Position numbers and translations under genes: made by a program | Source: Advenella kashmirensis | GTDB lineage: Bacteria > Pseudomonadota > Gammaproteobacteria > Burkholderiales > Burkholderiaceae_B | DNA: 32,000 nucleotides | Assembly: GCA_040395835.1 (NCBI GenBank) | Contig: JBEBPQ010000025.1 | Span: 13,174-45,173 of the forward strand | Direction of reading: 5' to 3' | Notes under the pieces: generated by a model | What the model was told of the DNA's origin: nothing | Database searches by the model: none | The model's input: the letters and a program-made list of their open reading frames with translations, nothing else | In this document: positions 12,241 through 21,763 of the stretch, in pieces | How positions within the stretch are numbered: position 1 is the stretch's first letter | Layout: every line of letters begins with the position of its first letter

Positions 12241-13224
12241 TTATTTTTTGACGTTGAGATCGAGATCGCCAATGGCGTCTTGCCACTTGGCGGTATCGCG
12301 AACGGTCTGCTCAATCAGTTCGGATGCCGGGCCCGGCATGGCGCGCACCTGCACGGCGCTGAATTTTTGCTGTGCCGCGGGGTCTTGCAGGAACGTTTGC
12401 GTGGCCGCATGCAGCTTGCCGATGATGGCTTCTGGCGTGCCTGCTTTTGCTGCGACGCCGCTCCAGCCTATGTTCTCGAAACCCTTCAGTCCCAATTCGG
12501 CCGCAGTCGGCACATTGGGCAACTCAGGAACGCGCTTGTCGTTGAACACCAGAAGGGGAACGAGTTTTCCTTCCTTGATCAGCGGTAAGGCGCTGCTCAG
12601 GACAGGCGCCACGATCTGGGTGTTGCCGCCGACCGTTGAGACGATGCTGTCGGGTTCGCCTCGATAAGGAATATGCAGCATGCTGAATCCGGCCTGCTTC
12701 ATCAGCATCTCGACGACCAGGTGAGTGGAATTACCGTTGCCGGACGAAGCAAAGGTGATTTTCTCGGGGTCGGCGGTGGCGGTTTTTTGCAAATCCGCGT
12801 AAGTCTTGATACCGGAACGCGGACTCGCCACAAGGACAAAGGGAACGGTCGTCAGCATGCCGACGCCCGCAAAGTCCTTTTCCGGCGAGTAGGACAGGGG
12901 CTTGTATACGAATTTGTTCAAGACCATTTGCGACACGCCGGCCAGAAACAGGGTATAGCCATCGGCGGGCTGCGACAACATCGCCTTGGCGGCGATGACA
13001 CCGCCGGCGCCGGGCCTGTTTTCCACCACGACGGGCACTTTGAGGGTTTTGCCCACGCTTTCCGCCCACATGCGCGCCAGATTGTCAGTGCCGCCACCGG
13101 CCTGCTGCGACACGATGATTTTGATCGGGCGCGCGGGAAAATCATCCGCGGCCAATGCCGGGTTGCCGCAGGCAGCGATAAGCAGCGCGGGCACCAGCGT
13201 GCGGAAACTAGAGTAAACTCTCAT
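12241..13224 (-). CDS. Bug-family (TctC-like) tripartite tricarboxylate transporter substrate-binding protein
   Basis: Signal peptide ...LIAACGNPALA|ADDFPARPIKIIVSQQAGGGTDNLAR, GAGGVIAA, ASSGNGNSTHL: hallmark Bug-family motifs. 9-nt gap to ggt downstream. Confidence 0.9.
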   Translation of the reverse strand: MRVYSSFRTLVPALLIAACGNPALAADDFPARPIKIIVSQQAGGGTDNLARMWAESVGKTLKVPVVVENRPGAGGVIAAKAMLSQPADGYTLFLAGVSQMVLNKFVYKPLSYSPEKDFAGVGMLTTVPFVLVASPRSGIKTYADLQKTATADPEKITFASSGNGNSTHLVVEMLMKQAGFSMLHIPYRGEPDSIVSTVGGNTQIVAPVLSSALPLIKEGKLVPLLVFNDKRVPELPNVPTAAELGLKGFENIGWSGVAAKAGTPEAIIGKLHAATQTFLQDPAAQQKFSAVQVRAMPGPASELIEQTVRDTAKWQDAIGDLDLNVKK

Positions 13225-13247
13225 GTTTTATCCTTGTTTGAATATTT

Positions 13248-13261
13248 ATAGATATATCTAT
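13248..13261. promoter_or_regulatory. Perfect 14-bp palindrome ATAGATATATCTAT in the bug / LysR divergent intergenic region (candidate LysR box)
   Basis: Read directly. It is flanked by a partial direct copy TTATAGATA (13263-13271) and sits between the Bug start (13224) and the LysR start (13325). LysR operators are typically AT-rich dyads of T-N11-A type. Confidence 0.35.
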
Positions 13262-13324
13262 TTTATAGATACGCAGGTATATAAATATGCATTTTCATTA
13301 TGAAATTTTGCCAATGAGGTATGA

Positions 13325-14290
13325 GTGAATACTCATGATATGCCTAGCAATAACGCTGCTTGGGCACGGCGCTTGAAAATACGTCACCTGGAGTATTTTC
13401 TGATTCTCAAACAGGCTGGCACGCTTTCGGAGGCGGCGCGAATGCTGCATATGACACAGTCAGCCATGTCGCATTGGCTCACGGAACTGGAAGCATTGCT
13501 GGGCGTGCGACTCGTCGAACGGGGCCGCAGGCTGCGTCTGACCCCGGAAGGCGAAGCCCTGTTGCGCCTGGCTACGCGCGTGCTGGGAGATATTGCAAGG
13601 ACGCAGGACGAACTCGATTTGCTGGCGCAGGGCGCGCCAGGCAGCTTCCATGTCGGTAGCGTCACCGCCGGGTTGGCCTATCTGATTCCCAATTCGATTT
13701 GCACCTTTCAGAAACAGGCGCCAGAGATTGCCATTCATATGACCGAGGGCGCTTTCTCATTGCTGCTGGAGCGACTGGAGGCCAGGGAGCTGGATGTGGT
13801 CGTTGGTTCCATTGATGCCAGAGCATACGCGCCCGGCCTCACGCACGAGGTGCTGTTCGAGGACCGCATTGTCGCCATCGTGGGACTGCATCATGTTTTG
13901 CGAGAGGAACCGCAGATATCCTGGGCGGATCTTGTCCGATACCCCTGGATCATGCCGGAAAAAACGACCTTGATGCGAAACCGCCTGGATACTGTCCTGC
14001 TGGAAAATGGTGGCGCTGGTGTCCGTCCCCGTATAGAAACCGCCTCCATCGTGACCATCGAAACCATTTTGAGACAGACCGATTATGTCGCGGTGTGTTC
14101 CGCGTCCCTTGGCGCGCATTTGCATGCGCTGGGCTTGGTGCACGCCTTGCCGCTGACTGCCGGTTTCGGTCCGGTAGGCGTGGTTTATCACGAGCGGGAT
14201 CCTCACCCTGTGATGGGGCGGTTCCTTGCGGAGCTGCGCTTGCAAGCCAATAGATTGCTTGAAAATACCGGTGCCGCTAGCCTTGGCTGA
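13325..14290 (+). CDS. LysR-family transcriptional regulator
   Basis: GTG at 13325 with GAGG 5 nt upstream (alternative ATG at 13340). wHTH LKIRHLEYFLILKQAGTLSEAARMLHMTQSAMSHWLTELEALLGVRLVER. Divergent from the bug-ggt operon. Confidence 0.9.
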   Translation: MNTHDMPSNNAAWARRLKIRHLEYFLILKQAGTLSEAARMLHMTQSAMSHWLTELEALLGVRLVERGRRLRLTPEGEALLRLATRVLGDIARTQDELDLLAQGAPGSFHVGSVTAGLAYLIPNSICTFQKQAPEIAIHMTEGAFSLLLERLEARELDVVVGSIDARAYAPGLTHEVLFEDRIVAIVGLHHVLREEPQISWADLVRYPWIMPEKTTLMRNRLDTVLLENGGAGVRPRIETASIVTIETILRQTDYVAVCSASLGAHLHALGLVHALPLTAGFGPVGVVYHERDPHPVMGRFLAELRLQANRLLENTGAASLG

Positions 14291-14372
14291 GGCGCGGAAC
14301 AGTCCGGCTGCGACCGCTATCGGCTGGCGGCAAGCGCGAGCATGGCGGCATCAACACTTTGCTCACAGGCGC

Positions 14373-16109
14373 TTACTGTTTGCCAGCGGCCGTCCGCATT
14401 TCCCTGGCGCGCATGAGAATGGCCGGGATTCTCAAGATGACGTCGCGATCTTTCTGTTTTTCCGGTTCGGGCAAATGCTCCCAGTCCACCAGCGAGGGAT
14501 GCTGGCGCCGCACATCGTCGCGTTGTTCCCCAAACCGCCAGCCATTGAGATATCTATTGGCGGACCAGCGTTCATGCTCGACTTTGGCCAGCAGTTCAAC
14601 TTGTTCCGGATTGAAGGCAACATGTTCTGACGCATCTTGTTGACTGCCCAATTGTCCTGTCATGGCCAGCTTATACGGGATGTGATCCGCCTGCATACGG
14701 CTGGCTTCCTTTGCCTCTTCCAGCAAGTCGTCCCAACCCGTCTTGAACGCGGCGCTTTCACTGGCGCTATGGCCGGTCAATTGTTGCAGGTAATCTTCAT
14801 GAATGGCCCGCGCTTGCGTATCCTGCAGTTGCCGGGTGATGAATTCTATCTGGCAAATGGATTCGATACTGCCAAAAAATGACAGGCGGGATAGCTGATT
14901 GTGTTTGGGTCTGAACAGCGCATTCAAGCCTTCATTGTGGTAATTGAGCGCAAATATCTTGAACTTGGACAATGAAGTCGCTCTCAAGATCTCAAGCGAC
15001 CATTTCAGGTTGACGCTATCTTCCTCGAAAGCGGTGATTAGCAATGGCACAATATCGGGCGTCAGGTCCTGCAGGTGGTCCTTCAGGATCGCTTCATAGG
15101 AACCGTCATATTCCTCGAAAGTGAGCTTGGCGACCTGTCTCGCGCCCGAGTACTCAGAATGGAAGGTCTTTTCCAGTTTGCTCGCGTCGGGGGCGCAGAT
15201 GACGATTTCCGGACTCGCGCTATTGAGAGTATGCAATACCTGTAGGGCATGTACGAGCAAGGCTTTCATTGTATCGCCCGCACCCAGGAAAACCAGTCGA
15301 AAGCGAGATGCCGGATCGGCCAGCTCCGCGGTATATTCGACCGGCAACTGGGCGAAGAAGTGGCGCGCGATCATTTGATGGTGGTTGAAAAAACGCAGAT
15401 CAAGGCCGCTTTCGCGCTCTTCCTGGAAATAATCCGATTGCTGCAGCATGGTCACGACTCTGGCGTTGTTGACATGCAAAAAACATTGCAGCCGGTAGCG
15501 ATCCGGTTTGGCCTGAACCAGATTGTGCAGGGCTCGCGTGACATTGATTGTTGCCTGTTCGTTATCCAGAAAGCAAATCACATACCTGGCCTTGGCGATG
15601 CCGGCTTCGATCAGGGCAGGGGGTTGGGTCGCATCTCCATTGAACAGCAGATGGCCCTGGCGCCTAACAGTGTTGGTGTTTCTGTGCGTATTACTGATTT
15701 CAAGCGCAACACCGGTCGTGTCATGATTTGTCTTCAGGTCATCGAGTAGCGCCAGCCCCTTGTTGCCGATACCGATAACCAATACCGGCTGTTTTTTAAA
15801 GAGCAGGCGCAATTGCGTGTAGTATTCGTAAAACAGCGCTTCGGCGATTTTGTACATGCCGGCCAGCAGGCCGACGGTCACGGCGATTTTCGCCAATGTC
15901 AGTTGCCAGGGCAGGGAGTCGTCTGCCAGCTTGCCGGAGACCGGATCCGCGCCCATCAGTGTCTTCAGTGTCCTGTAGATTTTGTCCGGCAGGTACATCC
16001 ATTCATTACTATCTGGATAGTAAACGCCCAATCCCACCCATGTCAGGACGATGATGGCAATCCCTGCCAGCAGAACGAGGATGCTTTTGAGACGGTGGGA
16101 CATTTTCAT
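14373..16109 (-). CDS. Membrane protein: 2 TM helices + two TrkA_N/RCK-like Rossmann modules + C-terminal RyR (ryanodine-receptor repeat) domain (578 aa)
   Basis: ATG at 16107-16109 overlaps the stop of the upstream TIR gene (ATGA). TM1 SILVLLAGIAIIVLTWVGLGVYY; TM2 WQLTLAKIAVTVGLLAGMYKIA. Rossmann 1: VLVIGIGNKGLALLDDL...GDATQPPALIEAGIAKARYVICFLDNEQATINV. Rossmann 2: LVFLGAGDTMKALL. RyR: LLAKVEHERWSANRYLNGWRFGEQRDDVRRQHPSLVDWEHLPEPEKQKDRDVILRIPAIL. Confidence 0.85.
   Translation of the reverse strand: MKMSHRLKSILVLLAGIAIIVLTWVGLGVYYPDSNEWMYLPDKIYRTLKTLMGADPVSGKLADDSLPWQLTLAKIAVTVGLLAGMYKIAEALFYEYYTQLRLLFKKQPVLVIGIGNKGLALLDDLKTNHDTTGVALEISNTHRNTNTVRRQGHLLFNGDATQPPALIEAGIAKARYVICFLDNEQATINVTRALHNLVQAKPDRYRLQCFLHVNNARVVTMLQQSDYFQEERESGLDLRFFNHHQMIARHFFAQLPVEYTAELADPASRFRLVFLGAGDTMKALLVHALQVLHTLNSASPEIVICAPDASKLEKTFHSEYSGARQVAKLTFEEYDGSYEAILKDHLQDLTPDIVPLLITAFEEDSVNLKWSLEILRATSLSKFKIFALNYHNEGLNALFRPKHNQLSRLSFFGSIESICQIEFITRQLQDTQARAIHEDYLQQLTGHSASESAAFKTGWDDLLEEAKEASRMQADHIPYKLAMTGQLGSQQDASEHVAFNPEQVELLAKVEHERWSANRYLNGWRFGEQRDDVRRQHPSLVDWEHLPEPEKQKDRDVILRIPAILMRAREMRTAAGKQ
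14400..14828 (-). other. RyR-domain region of CDS 14373..16109 (clear C-terminal copy, possibly a degenerate upstream copy)
   Basis: aa about 503-566 match the bacterial RyR consensus as I recall it (E-H-x-R-W...GW-x-[YF]G...HP-x-LV-x-[WY]-x-x-LP-x-x-EK-x-KDR). aa about 430-485 (ARAIHEDYLQQL...GWDDLLEEAKEASRMQADHI) look like a weaker related helical repeat. Confidence 0.6.
15435..15791 (-). other. First TrkA_N/RCK-type NAD-binding-fold module of CDS 14373..16109
   Basis: GxGxxG (GIGNKG), followed by an acidic residue at the end of beta-2 (ALE) and the GDAT...L..AGI..A..VI.....D..N motif characteristic of TrkA_N. Confidence 0.65.
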
Positions 16110-19100
16110 TTCATTTCTCTTGTGATATTGGCTCGAGCCCGATTCAGGATAACGCGAGTCTGGGCTTTGAGCTTTTCGTCGGGAATTTTTGACAGTTGCA
16201 GTTCCGTCATCCGAATCAGGCCATCGGCCACGAAACCGGTGGCTGCTTGACGGCTGAAATAATCAGCCATCGCCGCCCGGGCCAGTGGATGAAAACGCCA
16301 ATATTTGTCGAGCAACCGCAAGTTTGCGTCTACGTCCTTGTTTACCCATTTGGCGAGATAGTCTGCCGTCGTCTGCTTCGAGCCTGGCAACATGGGGCGC
16401 GAGTATGGATTCTGGAAAAACCATGACGCAGGCATATGTTCACCCGCGGCGAGGTCATTGACGGAGCCCGTGCTTGTATCGTATTGTTTGCCGTAGTAGG
16501 TCTCGGCCAGCGTGGCAAGCTGCCCGACCTCATTCTGGGGCACCGTAGGTACGTCCCATATATTGAGGATCGACTGGTCGGTAGTGAAATCAAGGGTCAC
16601 GACACGCTGCTCGTTCTGCAATAGGAAGACGTAATCGATCTTGCTCATGCCAAATGGCATGCTCACCGGCAGGCCGGTAGCGGCATCGAAGATGGCGATG
16701 CCTCTTTCAGTGCCCGAATCTCCCGAGTCGGTGGTAAATATAGTACGGCCGTCCTTGGAAAATAGCAGAAATTTGCCAGCGGTATCATTCTTGATCTTCT
16801 GGCCGATCGCCTGTTTTTTCTCCAGATCCCACAGCCGGATATATTTGGCATCTTCGGCCACTGCCAGTATTTTTCCATCCGGGCTTAGATCCGATTTCGG
16901 CACATTGCCGTAGGTGGGGATAGTGATCCGCTTTTTGAAGTCCTCCATATCGTAAAGATCGATCTTGTTTTCGCGAAATGCCAGCAGGTAGCGATCTTCA
17001 CCGATGAAACTGGCGCCGGTAAGGTGGCTGCGCTCCTGATACAGGGTCTGGCCGGTTTTGATGTCGATAATTTGCCACTGGCCATCGGCTTTGAGCGTCA
17101 GAATCTTCGAAAAATCTTGCGACAGCTGATAGCGCACTTTGGGCGGCAACGCAAATTCTCGGATACGTTTACCGGTCTGAATTTCCCAGATGCCCATCGT
17201 GTCCTTACTTAAACGGCCCGATGACAACACGCCCGCCTGATCGAGCAATATATTCTTCCCTTCGATCACAATCGGCTGGCCCAGTGGCGTGCCGGTGGTT
17301 GCCTGAAAAAAACGGACTTCGCGCCGTTGGTCCGCCAGATCGGTGATGGTATAGACGAAATCATGTTTTCTGCTGACGCCGAAATCCTTGATGATCTTGC
17401 CGACTTGAATAAACTTGGGCTGTTGCTTGCCATCCTCCAGATTCCACTGATCCAGGCTGGTGCCCTCCTTCTTCAGTACCAGCACTGTTTTGCTGTCGGG
17501 AACAGTCTGGACATTGACAACGTCGCTTCCCAGTTGAACTTGGTTGCGCAATAAGGACGGACCCTGATCCGTGATCAGGTTGCGGACTCCCTGTTGATTC
17601 TTTGTACTTTGTGTGAGATCGGGGGCAATCACGTCCTCTTCGGGCGGCAGGAGCTCTTTAAAATTGATTGGCGCAGTGCCCGATGTTACTTTGCGGTCCG
17701 TGTTTCGATCGAAGACAGTGTATTGCTGATATGTGGCGGCAACCGCTGTCTTGCCGTCAGGATTGAAATAAACGGCGATTATCGGATTGTCCATGGAAAT
17801 GGAGACCGGCTGCCCACCGGGCTGGTCAAGCCTGATATGGAAGAGGGACTCCGAGTTATAGAAAAACAGACTCTTTGACTCGGGATCAAAGACAGGCCTG
17901 CCATCGTCTATCGGTAGCTGGTACTCCTCCGAGGACAGGACCGTGCTATCGGTCTGGAATCGGTAGACCCTAATTTTTGTGCTGTTGTTTTCCGAGTTGG
18001 AGAAAGCCACGGTCCTGGAATCGGGTGCAATAAGCACACGCTCGAAGCCGAGGCGAGTGGACGACAGGCTCGGTACCGATTCGACCACGACTTTTCCTGA
18101 CGCGACGCTATAGACGGTTGTCAGGTTTTTGCCCGACTGTTGATTCTCGGACACCCATCCTTGCAGAACCAGCCAGTTGCCGTCTGGGCTTACGCTGAAC
18201 TGGCCGATACGCAGCTTGGCAGGCGGGCGATAGACGATTTCGGCTTCGTTGCCGTCCTGCCAACGCACCACCTGGCTTTTGGCATTAAGGAAGAAAAGCC
18301 GGTTATTCCTGTCAAAATGCATCGACGCATTAAGAATGGACGTTGGCAGATCGAACTGGCTCAGCTCCCGATACAGACGCCTGGCGACAACGTCCCAGAT
18401 CTGCAAATTCTGCTTCTTCCCGGAGGCGTCTATCTGCACCGCAAGCCAGCGACCATTCGGACTGAACACGGGCGCGCTGGAGGCTTTGGGAATGGGGGTA
18501 ATGCCGTTTTGCCGCATCAGCATCGACTGGACATACACGGCCGCCTGCGTATTTCCCAGCCGGCTTGCGGCGGCCATATAGGCCGCGCCTTCGCCCATTT
18601 CACTTTCGTTGATCTTGTTGATGCCCGATAAATACAACGAACGGGTGAGCATTTGTTGCGCGTTGTTGCGCTCATTCCAGGCGAATATGCCAAGGATGAT
18701 CGCCATGATTGCCAGCAGCCCGATGACGATCGCAATGCGTTTAACGACCCGGTGTCGCTGTTGCGCCTTGGCCAACTGATAAGCTTGATCACGTTTGGTC
18801 AGCTCGCCCAGGGGGATATCGAGCAGTCCGGCAATGATCTTGAGCTTGGCCAGATCCAACTGGGCCTTGTACTCCGCCACTTTGCGATCTATTGCCTTGC
18901 TGCCCAGTCCGTTTTTGCTTTGCCTTAGGTGATGGCGATAGGCCTCGAACGAGGTATATCCCTGCTCGGACGAGTTGGGCAGGCGCACATCCGCGGCCAG
19001 TGGCTCCTGGCGCGTTTCCTGATCGATGGCGCCATTTTCGTCGATCCGGTAGCGTAATACTTCCGGAAAACATTGCAGTTCGTCGGTATCTTCACCGTAT

Positions 19101-19522
19101 TGGGGGTCGCCGTCGAGAATCAGGGCGATGATTTTATCGGCGCGACCGATCTGCTTGAACCAGCGTATTTCCTCGGCAACGTAGGTCGACCGGGCCGAAC
19201 GCGGCGAAGCCAGGTACACCAGATGCGCCGATTGGGTCAGGGCCTGTCGCAGTGCGGTCGAGAGATTGGCGCTGGCGGAGAGTTCCTTTTCGTCCTGGAA
19301 TACCGGGTAGATTTGCGCGGGAATAGTGTCGCCCGAGCGATTTTTTGAACCAACCAGATCGGCGGGGACTTCGTAAGTCTCGAGTTCATGATGTAGCCAG
19401 TCCGCCCATTTGCGGCCTTCTTGCCGGTTATCCGAATGGCTGTAGCTGATGAACGCAATATATTTATTTGTCTCTTTATTTGTGTTGTCAATCGCGGTTT
19501 CCATAGCACCATGTCCGAACAT
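16106..19522 (-). CDS. TIR-domain / single-TM / WD40(PD40)-like beta-propeller protein (about 1138 aa), Toll-like-receptor-type topology
   Basis: The start is uncertain: ATG at 19522 (AGGA 11 nt upstream) or ATG at 19504. The track start at 19672 is a TTG with no RBS, and its first 50 aa are Arg/Cys/His junk. Domain evidence is in the sub-features below. Stop TGA at 16106-16108. Confidence 0.85.
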   Translation of the reverse strand: MFGHGAMETAIDNTNKETNKYIAFISYSHSDNRQEGRKWADWLHHELETYEVPADLVGSKNRSGDTIPAQIYPVFQDEKELSASANLSTALRQALTQSAHLVYLASPRSARSTYVAEEIRWFKQIGRADKIIALILDGDPQYGEDTDELQCFPEVLRYRIDENGAIDQETRQEPLAADVRLPNSSEQGYTSFEAYRHHLRQSKNGLGSKAIDRKVAEYKAQLDLAKLKIIAGLLDIPLGELTKRDQAYQLAKAQQRHRVVKRIAIVIGLLAIMAIILGIFAWNERNNAQQMLTRSLYLSGINKINESEMGEGAAYMAAASRLGNTQAAVYVQSMLMRQNGITPIPKASSAPVFSPNGRWLAVQIDASGKKQNLQIWDVVARRLYRELSQFDLPTSILNASMHFDRNNRLFFLNAKSQVVRWQDGNEAEIVYRPPAKLRIGQFSVSPDGNWLVLQGWVSENQQSGKNLTTVYSVASGKVVVESVPSLSSTRLGFERVLIAPDSRTVAFSNSENNSTKIRVYRFQTDSTVLSSEEYQLPIDDGRPVFDPESKSLFFYNSESLFHIRLDQPGGQPVSISMDNPIIAVYFNPDGKTAVAATYQQYTVFDRNTDRKVTSGTAPINFKELLPPEEDVIAPDLTQSTKNQQGVRNLITDQGPSLLRNQVQLGSDVVNVQTVPDSKTVLVLKKEGTSLDQWNLEDGKQQPKFIQVGKIIKDFGVSRKHDFVYTITDLADQRREVRFFQATTGTPLGQPIVIEGKNILLDQAGVLSSGRLSKDTMGIWEIQTGKRIREFALPPKVRYQLSQDFSKILTLKADGQWQIIDIKTGQTLYQERSHLTGASFIGEDRYLLAFRENKIDLYDMEDFKKRITIPTYGNVPKSDLSPDGKILAVAEDAKYIRLWDLEKKQAIGQKIKNDTAGKFLLFSKDGRTIFTTDSGDSGTERGIAIFDAATGLPVSMPFGMSKIDYVFLLQNEQRVVTLDFTTDQSILNIWDVPTVPQNEVGQLATLAETYYGKQYDTSTGSVNDLAAGEHMPASWFFQNPYSRPMLPGSKQTTADYLAKWVNKDVDANLRLLDKYWRFHPLARAAMADYFSRQAATGFVADGLIRMTELQLSKIPDEKLKAQTRVILNRARANITREMK
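16535..18475 (-). other. Beta-propeller (WD40/PD40-like) repeat region of CDS 16106..19522, predicted extracytoplasmic
   Basis: Recurrent blade motifs: FSPNGRWLAVQ, VSPDGNWLVLQ, IAPDSRTVAFS, FDPESKSLFFY, FNPDGKTAVAA, LSQDFSKILTL, LSPDGKILAVA..IRLWD, FSKDGRTIFTT, ILNIWD. The spacing suggests one large or two tandem propellers. Confidence 0.65.
18677..18736 (-). other. Predicted transmembrane helix of CDS 16106..19522
   Basis: RIAIVIGLLAIMAIILGIFAW, preceded by a basic cluster (KAQQRHRVVKR). By the positive-inside rule this places the TIR domain in the cytoplasm and the propeller outside. Confidence 0.7.
19103..19462 (-). other. TIR domain of CDS 16106..19522
   Basis: KYIAFISYSHSDNRQEGRKWADWLHHELE...IYPVFQDEKELSASANLSTALRQALTQSAHLVYLASPRSARSTYVAEEIRWFKQ...KIIALILDGDP follows the bacterial TIR_2 pattern (FISYS / F.D...L..G / ..V.L.SP....S.W...E). 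Confidence 0.75.
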
Positions 19523-21076: not shown

Positions 21077-21763
21077 TTGTCAAGAAAAAACTTGGAAAAT
21101 TGGCGTGCAGAGCTAGGCTCGACCTCGGAACGGCTGTTGCTGTTGTTGAAGACGCGCGGCCCGCAGCAATCGATGGCGGCTGGCAAGTTGCTGGGTACGA
21201 CGTCCGAAGCGGTACGGCAGCAGTTCGTGAAGTTGGCGGATGCCGGGCTGGTCGAATCTTTCTCGCAAACCAGGGGCGTTGGCCGTCCCAGTCAATTCTG
21301 GAAATTGACGCAGGCGGGCCACAAGCGTTTTCCAGACAGCCATGCCGAATTGACCATGCAACTGCTCGATACCGTCAGGCAGGTGTACGGAGAAGCAGCG
21401 ATTGAACAACTGATTGATGCCCGGGAACAGGCGAGCGAAGCGCGCTATTCACAGGAAATGGCCGGACTGGAGGGGCTGAGCGCGCGCATGGAAAAGCTGG
21501 CGGACTTGCGATCCGCGGAGGGTTATATGGCGCAGGTCGAGGCGCGGGAGGATGGGGCGTTGCTGCTGGTGGAAAACCATTGCCCCATTTGCGCGGCAGC
21601 AACGGCATGCCAGGGGTTCTGTCGTTCCGAAAGAATGGTGTTCGAGCGCGTGCTGCAGGCGCGGGTCGAGCGGGTTGAGCATATCCTGAACCAGGCACGG
21701 CGTTGCGCCTATGTCGTCAGCCCGCTATCGATCAGTTCGCCTGAAAACCAGAAAAAGCGCTAA
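21077..21763 (+). CDS. ArsR-like winged-helix transcriptional regulator with C-terminal Cys-containing domain (COG2345-like)
   Basis: TTG start at 21077 with SD AAGGAA 6 nt upstream; no in-frame ATG precedes the HTH. SERLLLLLKTRGPQQSMAAGKLLGTTSEAVRQQFVKLADAGLVE...GVGRPSQFWKLTQAGHKRFPDSH. C-terminal ENHCPICAAATACQGFCRSE. Confidence 0.8.
   Translation: MSRKNLENWRAELGSTSERLLLLLKTRGPQQSMAAGKLLGTTSEAVRQQFVKLADAGLVESFSQTRGVGRPSQFWKLTQAGHKRFPDSHAELTMQLLDTVRQVYGEAAIEQLIDAREQASEARYSQEMAGLEGLSARMEKLADLRSAEGYMAQVEAREDGALLLVENHCPICAAATACQGFCRSERMVFERVLQARVERVEHILNQARRCAYVVSPLSISSPENQKKR

Follow-up and report, generated by a model that had tools for sequence, protein, structure and literature searches.

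How could a bacterium turn an event outside its cytoplasm into a nucleotide signal made inside it, and which protein would receive that signal? To our knowledge, the characterized bacterial TIR signalling systems all sense infection in the cytoplasm. The question is raised by a two-gene cassette on the minus strand of a 32,000-nucleotide stretch of Advenella kashmirensis DNA (assembly GCA_040395835.1, contig JBEBPQ010000025.1, positions 13,174 to 45,173; this whole stretch is the window, and its own numbering is used below). Gene 1 encodes a TIR domain, a single predicted transmembrane (TM) helix and a large repeat ectodomain. A first-pass annotation made from the sequence alone had noticed this protein; it had overlooked gene 2, the partner gene, which is translationally coupled to gene 1, strictly conserved with it and the best clue to how the system works. 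The locus suggests a hitherto undescribed form of TIR nucleotide signalling, in which the sensor is predicted to be periplasmic and a membrane protein with an RyR domain would be the effector. That the cassette is a Thoeris-like two-gene signalling system, in which a periplasmic sensor acts through an RyR-gated membrane effector, is a reading to which its sequences lead us to give about an even chance. The observation of the first-pass annotation is confirmed; its interpretation finds support in part and is taken considerably further.

One genome per GTDB species was scanned for relatives of gene 1, giving at least 519 loci; the best 80 were kept, comprising 21 full-length orthologue loci and 59 more distant ones. 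A look at homologues together with their neighbours had been proposed in the first-pass annotation, and all 21 full-length orthologue loci carry the same partner gene directly 3' of gene 1 and on the same strand, with gaps mostly of -4 to +27 nucleotides (nt). In the window, the start of gene 2 overlaps the stop of gene 1 in an ATGA at 16106-16109.

Gene 1 is open from 19672 down to its stop at 16106-16108. The ATG start at 19522 has an AGGA 11 nt upstream and gives a product of 1138 amino acids (aa); an alternative ATG at 19504, 18 nt further in, would trim 6 aa. A longer start at TTG 19672 was rejected because the 50 aa that it adds have no counterpart in homologues. The identical protein with the same gene call (P0001) occurs in a public collection, where it lies on a Logan contig of 66 kb (run SRR8834011). 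From the N-terminus onward, the protein consists of the TIR domain, a helical linker, the TM helix, a helical stalk, two propellers and a 140-aa helical tail. Its AlphaFold2 model was built from 44 full-length homologues, with a mean predicted local distance difference test score (pLDDT) of 87.6 and a predicted template modelling score (pTM) of 0.72. Searches of the PDB found no solved structure for the gene 1 or partner families. PDB 9m0n, a TIR-containing "tetratricopeptide repeat protein", was considered as a solved relative and set aside; the TIR-TM-TPR family member P0090 does not match it.

Judged by its sequence, the TIR domain looks to be of the catalytic type, with an intact catalytic Glu118. 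Pfam TIR_2 (PF13676) matches aa 24-140 at 39.8 bits (cut-off 28), and ThsB_TIR scores 23.4 bits, just above its cut-off of 21.2. The motif S106-P-x-S109-x2-S112-x-Y114-V115-x2-E118, which ends in Glu118 (nt 19169-19171), is invariant across 44 orthologues, and its core, including E118, is invariant in 18 diverse relatives. While phmmer with the N-terminal 274 aa found no match in the PDB, a profile of the 18 relatives reached the plant TIR domains of L6, ROQ1 and AtTIR and aligned E118 with the Glu that is catalytic in their WCLxEL motif.

The gene 1 product is also predicted, with good support, to be a type II signal-anchor protein with its N-terminus and TIR domain inside and its C-terminus and propellers in the periplasm. 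Residues 263-281 are the sole outstanding hydrophobic 19-mer of the protein (Kyte-Doolittle 3.06; next best 1.18). They directly follow the basic string KAQQRHRVVKR (aa 252-262) that ends the linker, just as the first-pass annotation had it; the hydrophobic stretch that it named, RIAIVIGLLAIMAIILGIFAW, corresponds to aa 262-282, and the linker string that it named lies at aa 216-255. A strong hydrophobic segment occurs at aa ~200-335 in all 120 listed homologues, its sequence varying. Lys and Arg together average 7.5 in the 20 aa before the segment versus 3.1 in the 20 aa after it, and are more numerous before it in 116 of the 120. The ectodomain is poor in Cys (0.31 versus 0.84 per 100 aa); in 38 of 65 orthologues its ~850 residues include none. 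The conserved helix, the positive-inside bias and the scarcity of Cys, along with secreted lectin-like proteins encoded near distant relatives (see below), argue for a cytoplasmic TIR domain and outside propellers. Thus the proposal of an inside TIR domain, a single TM helix and a large outside repeat domain was borne out, as a prediction, by every in silico test run. Conservation also runs through the parts that join the two sides. Median identity to the query is 53% in the linker (24 of 72 columns at least 90% conserved), 58% in the TM helix and 53% in the stalk, and the linker motif LAKLKIIAG-L-PLGELTKRD is conserved even in distant relatives.

If the helix did not span the membrane, or if the linker crossed it as well, the TIR domain and the propellers would lie on the same side, in a soluble or peripheral TIR-WD40 sensor resembling the WD40 arms that STAND/Apaf-1-type proteins have in the cytoplasm. 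True bacterial WD40 propellers are mostly cytoplasmic, and the best fold match of the ectodomain is Apaf-1. AlphaFold2 confidence dips at aa 260-271, at the start of the TM helix, and the linker motif, as LAKLKIIAGxLGVPLGELT, reaches Kyte-Doolittle values of 1.6-2.1 in some homologues. In the gene 1 protein, however, the motif scores 1.16 and includes four charged residues (K, K, D and E), and the linker was rejected as a second TM helix because a second crossing would land an NAD+-dependent TIR domain in the periplasm. Given in addition the score of the helix at aa 263-281, its hydrophobicity in every listed homologue despite a varying sequence, and the charge bias, this arrangement seems very improbable; matches to PD40/TolB-like repeats and the secreted lectin-like genes near relatives likewise fit a periplasmic ectodomain.

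The repeat region folds as a propeller in both the AlphaFold2 model and the Foldseek comparisons, on which its description as one had been made to depend. It does so twice, as two tandem 7-bladed WD40-like propellers instead of the single one first proposed. The 57 β-strands at aa 341-990 of the model amount to about 14 four-stranded blades plus a closure strand, and tandem WD40 propellers come first in Foldseek against the PDB (Apaf-1, 3sfz, E 1.6e-22; then UTP, EML and WDR proteins). Pfam WD40-family propeller models match aa ~760-1000, with Beta-prop_THOC3 at E 4e-18, below the whole-propeller cut-offs. No leucine-rich repeat (LRR) was matched in the gene 1 protein with Pfam, AlphaFold2 or Foldseek. 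The helical tail of 140 aa, also foreseen, is present in the model at aa 999-1138. It conserves W1034, P1046, H1078 and P1079 (median identity 34%) and belongs to no known family, with no Pfam or NCBIfam match of note. Propeller A is the most variable part of the protein, at a median identity of 20% (its boundary with propeller B is approximate), and propeller B follows at 25%. Since identity is 63% in the TIR domain and 20-25% in the propellers, gene 1 looks like a protein whose signalling end stays constant while its recognition end changes fast.

The gene 2 product is channel-like in its predicted layout. Its AlphaFold2 model, from a 13-sequence alignment (pLDDT 83.3, pTM 0.78), begins with TM1, followed by a short helix with a conserved loop and by TM2, which continues as a long helix; two Rossmann domains and a C-terminal domain of five helices come after it. 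In the N-terminal two-TM (2TM) module, TM1 (~10-28) and TM2 (~70-93) flank a pore-helix-like loop with the motif YLPxKxYRTLxTLMGxDP, and both ends of the module are predicted to lie in the cytoplasm. All 13 homologues have positive charge at the N-terminus and in the stretch that follows TM2, with a neutral to acidic loop in between; on this basis the RCK and RyR domains are expected in the cytoplasm, on the same side as the TIR domain. In the first RCK domain, Pfam TrkA_N matches aa 109-200 (48.2 bits, cut-off 23.8), the dinucleotide motif G-x-G-x2-G reads IGIGNKG with G113 and G118 invariant, and the acidic E137 is kept in at least 90% of the sequences. Foldseek aligns ~400 columns to the tandem-RCK gating ring of TrkA (4g65, E 1.7e-7) and 537 columns to the full GsuK channel, which was crystallized with NAD and with ADP; full-length MthK and BK are matched too. 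Tandem RCK/KTN domains after a 2TM module, the layout of MthK/GsuK-type channels, are thus found in the partner at the level of the predicted fold.

At its C-terminus the partner has an RyR domain made of a divergent first half-repeat (~430-482) and a canonical RyR repeat (503-558). Pfam RyR (PF02026) matches the latter at 50.2 bits (cut-off 27.4). With phmmer against the PDB, the partner matches Repeat12 of RyR1 and RyR3 at E 1e-15 to 1e-23, along with 3NRT, a Bacteroides thetaiotaomicron "putative ryanodine receptor", and Foldseek aligns its C-terminus to RyR3 Repeat12 over ~181 columns. Among viral models, Foldseek places phage proteins first, namely RyR-domain proteins and a K+-channel protein. 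According to two 2026 preprints, phage RyR-domain proteins act on Thoeris signals (PMC13232231; doi 10.64898/2026.06.04.730250). RyDEP, gp78 of Mycobacterium phage DyoEdafos, binds 2'/3' cyclic ADP-ribose (cADPR) through H75, W78, H100 and D117, of which the His/Asp pair is a catalytic dyad; six of eight tested phage RyR homologues bound Thoeris signals, two being nanomolar-affinity sponges, and none besides RyDEP cleaved the signals (PMC13232231). RyR Tad, gp68 of phage vB_PatP_CB1, binds 3'cADPR, 2'cADPR and cADPR with contacts at H129/W132, K147/H154 and K170/D171 (doi 10.64898/2026.06.04.730250).

The corresponding residues of the partner are H512, W515, H537, K553 and D554 (nt 14448-14576). 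H512, W515 and D554 are invariant and H537 and K553 kept in at least 90% of the 13-sequence alignment, and the strict pattern H-x2-W-x21-H-x15-K-D occurs in all 23 intact partner ORFs (open reading frames). The offsets from the first His (+3, +25 and +42) equal those of RyDEP and RyR Tad, a match that rests on published residue numbers and not on sequence alignment. These likenesses suggest that the partner RyR domain is of the kind that binds cADPR-type signals made by TIR domains, such binding having been shown for the phage homologues. The divergent half-repeat probably supplies the other half of the two-fold Repeat12 fold from the same chain, where the phage proteins dimerize instead. Relatives of the RyR repeat (window 14436-14603) are also encoded in 74 phage genomes, mostly annotated as hypothetical proteins, among them Pseudomonas, Aeromonas, Arthrobacter, Erwinia and Klebsiella phages. 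Phage DyoEdafos was not among the matches in this tblastn search (E<=1e-3), phage LKA5 was ruled out as the RyR Tad phage, being a different one, and a further homologue search with the partner alignment, whose reach is limited by a word pre-filter, returned nothing new. The coordinates of both genes and their parts are collected in Table 1.

Table 1. Features of the two-gene cassette in the window, with the basis of each assignment.
Feature	Position	Strand	Basis
Gene 1, TIR-TM-double-propeller protein	16106..19522	-	ORF, start context, identical public protein P0001, 44 full-length homologues aligned
TIR domain, aa ~20-190	18953..19465	-	Pfam TIR_2; invariant E118; profile alignment to plant TIRs
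Cytoplasmic helical linker, aa 191-262	18737..18952	-	AlphaFold2 helices 192-201, 208-234, 238-261
Single TM helix (signal anchor), aa 263-281	18680..18736	-	Hydrophobicity, homologue conservation, charge bias
Juxtamembrane periplasmic helical stalk, aa 282-338, conserved	18509..18679	-	AlphaFold2 helices 270-305, 309-321, 325-338
β-propeller A, aa ~341-636, ~7 blades	17615..18502	-	DSSP strands, Foldseek tandem WD40 matches, PD40 aa 341-376
β-propeller B, aa ~637-992, ~7 blades, WD40-like	16547..17614	-	Pfam WD40-family models, AlphaFold2, Foldseek
C-terminal helical domain, aa 999-1138	16109..16528	-	AlphaFold2 helices 999-1010, 1052-1137, pLDDT ~90
Gene 2, partner protein, 578 aa	14373..16109	-	ORF; directly downstream in 21/21 orthologue loci
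2TM module, aa 1-104	15798..16109	-	AlphaFold2 helices 5-30, 37-51, 68-104; Foldseek; charges; loop conservation
RCK1/TrkA_N Rossmann domain, aa ~106-241	15387..15794	-	Pfam TrkA_N, Foldseek to TrkA 4g65
Second RCK-like Rossmann domain, aa ~266-420	14850..15314	-	AlphaFold2 β-α pattern; Foldseek ~400 columns to TrkA, GsuK
RyR Repeat12-like domain, aa ~421-578	14376..14849	-	Pfam RyR, phmmer PDB, Foldseek, residue conservation

Domain anatomy, conserved signals of topology, strict pairing of the genes and conserved key residues are what the sequences show; from these we infer a scheme in which activation would come from outside the cytoplasm. A ligand would bind the variable periplasmic double propeller, with the stalk and the C-terminal helical domain forming part of the sensor, and its binding would cluster or re-orient the receptors. 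The stalk, the TM helix and the cytoplasmic linker would relay this clustering, and the N-terminal TIR domains would assemble in an active form and turn NAD+ into a messenger derived from ADP-ribose, most likely a cADPR isomer. Binding of the messenger to the partner RyR domain would then gate the 2TM module, to which a change in NAD+/ADP-ribose occupancy at the RCK Rossmann site may contribute. The output would be an ion flux or membrane depolarization leading to growth arrest. The likely purpose would be defence against a threat that reaches the periplasm, such as the entry machinery of a phage, damage to the envelope or a toxin from a competitor.

The more distant relatives of gene 1 offer a wider view of what such TIR domains are paired with. 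At the 59 distant loci only the TIR-linker-TM module aligns, and the ectodomains are TPR, other WD40 or unknown. Twelve of these loci adjoin a gene for a ~760-aa protein with an N-terminal RyR domain, a TPR-S/MAP3K_TRAF_bd region and an adenylate/guanylate-cyclase domain (L049:7494-9776, L054:6406-8889, L031, L032, L039, L051, L053, L062, L063, L067, L077 and L078). The RyR domain of these proteins keeps the His, Trp, His and Asp, and the RyR-cyclase neighbour could be a second RyR-based output that relays the signal to a cyclic nucleotide. At 11 of the 59, proteins of 600-850 aa have an N-terminal VTGHRDL motif with sub-threshold matches to YAcAr/SLOG and also carry DUF4231/SLATT_3 and SLATT_1 membrane modules, one DUF4231 match being above the cut-off (the loci include L087:14002-16554, L072:16390-18165, L055:8166-9977, L083:1054-2859 and L042:15581-17401). 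SLOG and SLATT are recognized sensor and effector modules of TIR and CBASS systems. Partners of the RyR-cyclase and SLOG-SLATT kinds follow the pattern of signal-producing TIR domains, and their recurrence suggests a large, so far unstudied family of membrane TIR receptors. Seven distant loci encode, 110-300 nt downstream of the TIR-TM gene, a ~530-aa signal-peptide protein with a weak C-type-lectin match (including L087:12373-13953 and L060:12404-13996); these may be periplasmic co-receptors, and as secreted neighbours they fit a periplasmic working site of the ectodomain. Proteins of the 2TM-RCK-RyR type are encoded at two distant loci (L069 and L074) and, separately, in Vibrio cholerae (L006). 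In the V. cholerae cluster (L006/L007, 1-12887), a 626-aa TIR-TM protein is encoded together with DUF350, Lcl_C lectin-like, HD_4, TPR and AAA proteins and, on the opposite strand, a 630-aa TrkA_N-RyR protein. This cluster may be a larger multi-gene version of the system.

An intact catalytic Glu would equally serve a TIR domain that is itself the effector. The gene 1 protein would then deplete NAD+ in abortive infection, as SARM1 and the TIR effectors of CBASS and Pycsar do, and the partner would be accessory. The RCK sites, with their dinucleotide motif in RCK1 and a fold matching the NAD- and ADP-binding GsuK, would register falling NAD+ or rising ADP-ribose and adjust ion flux. The RyR domain, which keeps the His and Asp of the RyDEP catalytic dyad (PMC13232231), would be a RyDEP-like glycosidase or sponge clearing basal cADPR-type by-products and so preventing self-activation. 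One distant 2TM-RCK-RyR gene adjoining a NUDIX hydrolase gene also fits. However, a plain NAD+ depleter would need no membrane partner co-inherited as strictly as in the 21 orthologue loci, the relatives of this TIR domain pair with sensor-plus-output proteins, and most of the tested phage RyR homologues bound the signals, with cleavage confined to RyDEP (PMC13232231). On balance we consider NAD+ depletion as the main activity, although it is the leading alternative, unlikely.

Several points weigh against a Thoeris-like system with an RyR-gated membrane effector. The 2TM loop reads TLMGADP and lacks a TVGYG filter, and no Pfam ion-channel model matched it at E<=0.1; the module is therefore called channel-like and is not filed as a K+ channel. 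The loop has low pLDDT at aa 52-67, and a channel function relies on a fold predicted from 13 sequences. To the basis of the residue comparison with the phage proteins, given above, is added its reverse side: as the His/Asp catalytic pair of RyDEP is kept along with the other contacts, the partner RyR domain could degrade the messenger rather than sense it. Nor is the 2TM-RCK-RyR family, which is large (657 clusters at 50% identity, E<=1e-30), exclusively linked to TIR, since three distant members (27-31% identity; L091:3-539, L092:3-1205 and L093) have no relative of the gene 1 TIR nearby. Their neighbours are a NUDIX hydrolase gene, a nucleotide cyclase gene overlapping the gene start, or FGE-sulfatase and patatin genes; all are nucleotide or conflict-system genes, each a single case. 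In the window, the neighbours of the cassette are housekeeping genes (LeuA, GGT, TctC, LysR and MFS). PADLOC has no system model that fits gene 1 and its partner beyond weak TIR matches: gene 1 gave ThsB matches at E 0.02-0.03 and the partner gave none. Among 122 neighbour ORFs at 15 orthologue loci, the only clear defence genes in PADLOC are Cas9 at two loci and one ZorD/DpdE-like helicase; generic ABC-ATPase matches (mad3, AriA) were disregarded. With so few defence genes among the neighbours, support from defence islands is weak.

How the cassette is distributed bears on whether it serves defence at all. The orthologue loci span Betaproteobacteria, Gammaproteobacteria and Bacteroidota, occurring in several Advenella species, Propionivibrio, Dentiradicibacter, two Diaphorobacter species, Brachymonas, Neisseriaceae, Cardiobacteriaceae and about ten Sphingobacterium genomes. 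The genes on either side vary from genus to genus (malic enzyme and ABC transporter; GH31 and thiamine genes; LysR and MFS in the window), and the GC content of the cassette is slightly lower than that of its surroundings (53.7% versus 57.1%). Patchy across phyla, with unrelated flanks and a slightly lower GC content, the cassette is a mobile two-gene unit that crosses phylum boundaries. Some copies of the partner have decayed, being split in Diaphorobacter aerolatus and in one Sphingobacterium metagenome-assembled genome.

A non-immune role would fit part of this context. A periplasmic cue, such as an envelope component, the osmotic or ionic state or a neighbouring cell, would lead through a TIR-made nucleotide to the regulation of a cation channel or transporter, in envelope or cell-contact signalling. 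The housekeeping neighbours in the window and at most orthologue loci are what such a role would predict, as is the lack of fitting PADLOC matches. RCK/TrkA_N domains normally regulate K+ transport, and the family is stable within the whole genera Advenella and Sphingobacterium. Set against this are the marks of a mobile accessory cassette, the several decayed copies (split partner genes and a fused chimera) and the very fast divergence of the sensor domain. Many phages, moreover, carry RyR-domain proteins acting against TIR signalling, as the two 2026 preprints describe, and the characterized bacterial TIR signalling systems have all been anti-phage so far (doi 10.64898/2025.12.03.692087). 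A non-immune role is, in our judgement, quite unlikely, and a Thoeris-like system with a probable defence role is preferred.

Individual copies and neighbours add some detail. In D. aerolatus (CP060783; L005/L016, in L016 at 13077-14959), the partner is present as two ORFs of 356 and 271 aa, suggesting decay. A Cas9 gene lies ~3.5 kb downstream of the cassette in both Diaphorobacter species (D. aerolatus and D. caeni, L021). P0061, a 1083-aa protein on a 4.2-kb Logan contig corresponding to about 14376-19522 of the window, is a chimera of gene 1 and its partner in which the C-terminal helical domain is swapped in frame for the last ~115 aa of the partner, the RyR repeat; it is either a natural deletion fusing both genes or an assembly artefact. 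In the window, a 228-aa ORF between the MFS and LysR genes (21077-21763, plus strand) had no Pfam match at E<=1e-5, and scans for promoters and terminators gave matches at the level expected by chance.

Among known systems, Thoeris is the nearest in logic. It is likewise a two-gene operon of a catalytic-Glu TIR protein and a separate nucleotide-sensor/membrane-output protein. Yirmiya et al. (2025) listed 29 putative Thoeris types, of which type II (TM-Macro effector), type VII (SLATT effector) and type X ("ion channel" effector, signal not known) are closest; the TIR protein of type X, a short ThsB, belongs to another cluster than the gene 1 TIR, and an RyR Repeat12 sensor such as the partner has is not among the listed effectors (doi 10.64898/2025.12.03.692087). 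Type VII has a counterpart in the distant relatives of the gene 1 TIR that pair with SLOG-SLATT-like proteins. In contrast to the small, cytoplasmic ThsB, the gene 1 protein is 1138 aa long and membrane-anchored, with an extracytoplasmic sensor of ~850 aa. The cassette thus has the TIR gene in a conserved operon with a separate effector gene, as the ATGA overlap and the 21 orthologue loci attest, whereas a ThsB/ThsA model match and a defence-island location are both wanting, with PADLOC E-values of 0.02-0.03 and mostly housekeeping neighbours. The system works like Thoeris, as far as its predicted parts allow, yet fails membership on existing models and context. No description of a TIR-propeller protein with an RyR partner was found in the searchable literature, and searches on TPR-S/RyR/TIR and on RyR gene neighbourhoods found nothing relevant. 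The text and parts of the supplement of Yirmiya et al. (2025) contain none of the words RyR, TrkA and WD40 and neither of the gene 1 TIR motifs AFISYSH and FQDEKEL, and Kaur et al. (2021) treat no link between RyR and TIR.

The phage proteins RyDEP and RyR Tad share with the partner the PF02026 family, the His/Trp/His/(Lys)Asp residues with their spacing and a matching predicted fold. As small soluble proteins they either break down host 2'/3'cADPR or sequester it, whereas the partner RyR domain forms the C-terminus of a membrane protein of the host, and their fold is a homodimer, in contrast to the two unequal repeats in one chain of the partner. Standing in a host membrane protein beside a TIR gene, the partner RyR would therefore be a receiver of the signal and not an inhibitor. 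For the remainder of the partner the likeness is to GsuK (4gx0-4gx5), MthK (6oly) and TrkA (4g65/4j9v), whose succession of TM1, pore-helix-like segment, TM2 and tandem RCK domains recurs in its predicted fold, with a common dinucleotide-binding motif and Foldseek E-values of 1e-7 to 1e-5. Unlike the GsuK and MthK channels, the partner has TLMG(A/S)DP in place of a TVGYG-type filter, no Ion_trans_2 match and an extra C-terminal RyR domain. As for the ectodomain, Apaf-1 and the sensor arms of bacterial STAND proteins likewise use two consecutive WD40-like propellers, of 7-8 blades, to sense for a death or immunity effector domain. Gene 1, however, has no NTPase module, its propellers are predicted to be periplasmic, and identity is only ~12%.

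The Toll-like-receptor topology initially ascribed to gene 1 holds for the layout of repeat ectodomain, single TM helix and cytoplasmic TIR domain. The order is reversed, and the parts are otherwise unrelated: Toll-like receptors have an LRR ectodomain, type I orientation and a C-terminal TIR domain, whereas gene 1 has WD40 propellers, type II orientation and an N-terminal TIR domain. The TIR domains of Toll-like receptors are adaptor scaffolds without a catalytic role. On the output side, a TIR enzyme encoded together with an RyR Repeat12 membrane protein echoes the proposed axis from SARM1/CD38 through cADPR to RyR, although animal RyRs share only the RyR repeat with the partner, whose pore and gating parts belong to the prokaryotic 2TM/RCK type. 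A bolder reading would make the cassette an outside-in innate-immune receptor, in which a propeller sensor drives a TIR cyclase whose cADPR-type product gates a channel through RyR Repeat12, and would see in it a prokaryotic counterpart of the Toll-like-receptor layout and of the long-disputed animal link from cADPR to RyR, from which both might have evolved. We find this possible but doubtful.

The locus links three questions, namely how TIR signalling is triggered, which host proteins use the cADPR-binding RyR fold and whether channels can be gated by an RyR repeat. If its TIR sensor is indeed periplasmic, a nucleotide alarm could be raised by events at or outside the inner membrane, such as the arrival of phage DNA-ejection machinery, envelope damage or attack by a competitor, as in the logic of animal Toll-like receptors. 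If the partner is gated by the messenger, it would be the missing host-side use of the RyR fold and would explain why phages carry RyR sponges and glycosidases. It would also provide a simple bacterial model in which to ask if a channel can be gated by cADPR-type ligands through an RyR repeat, a matter debated for animal RyRs for decades.

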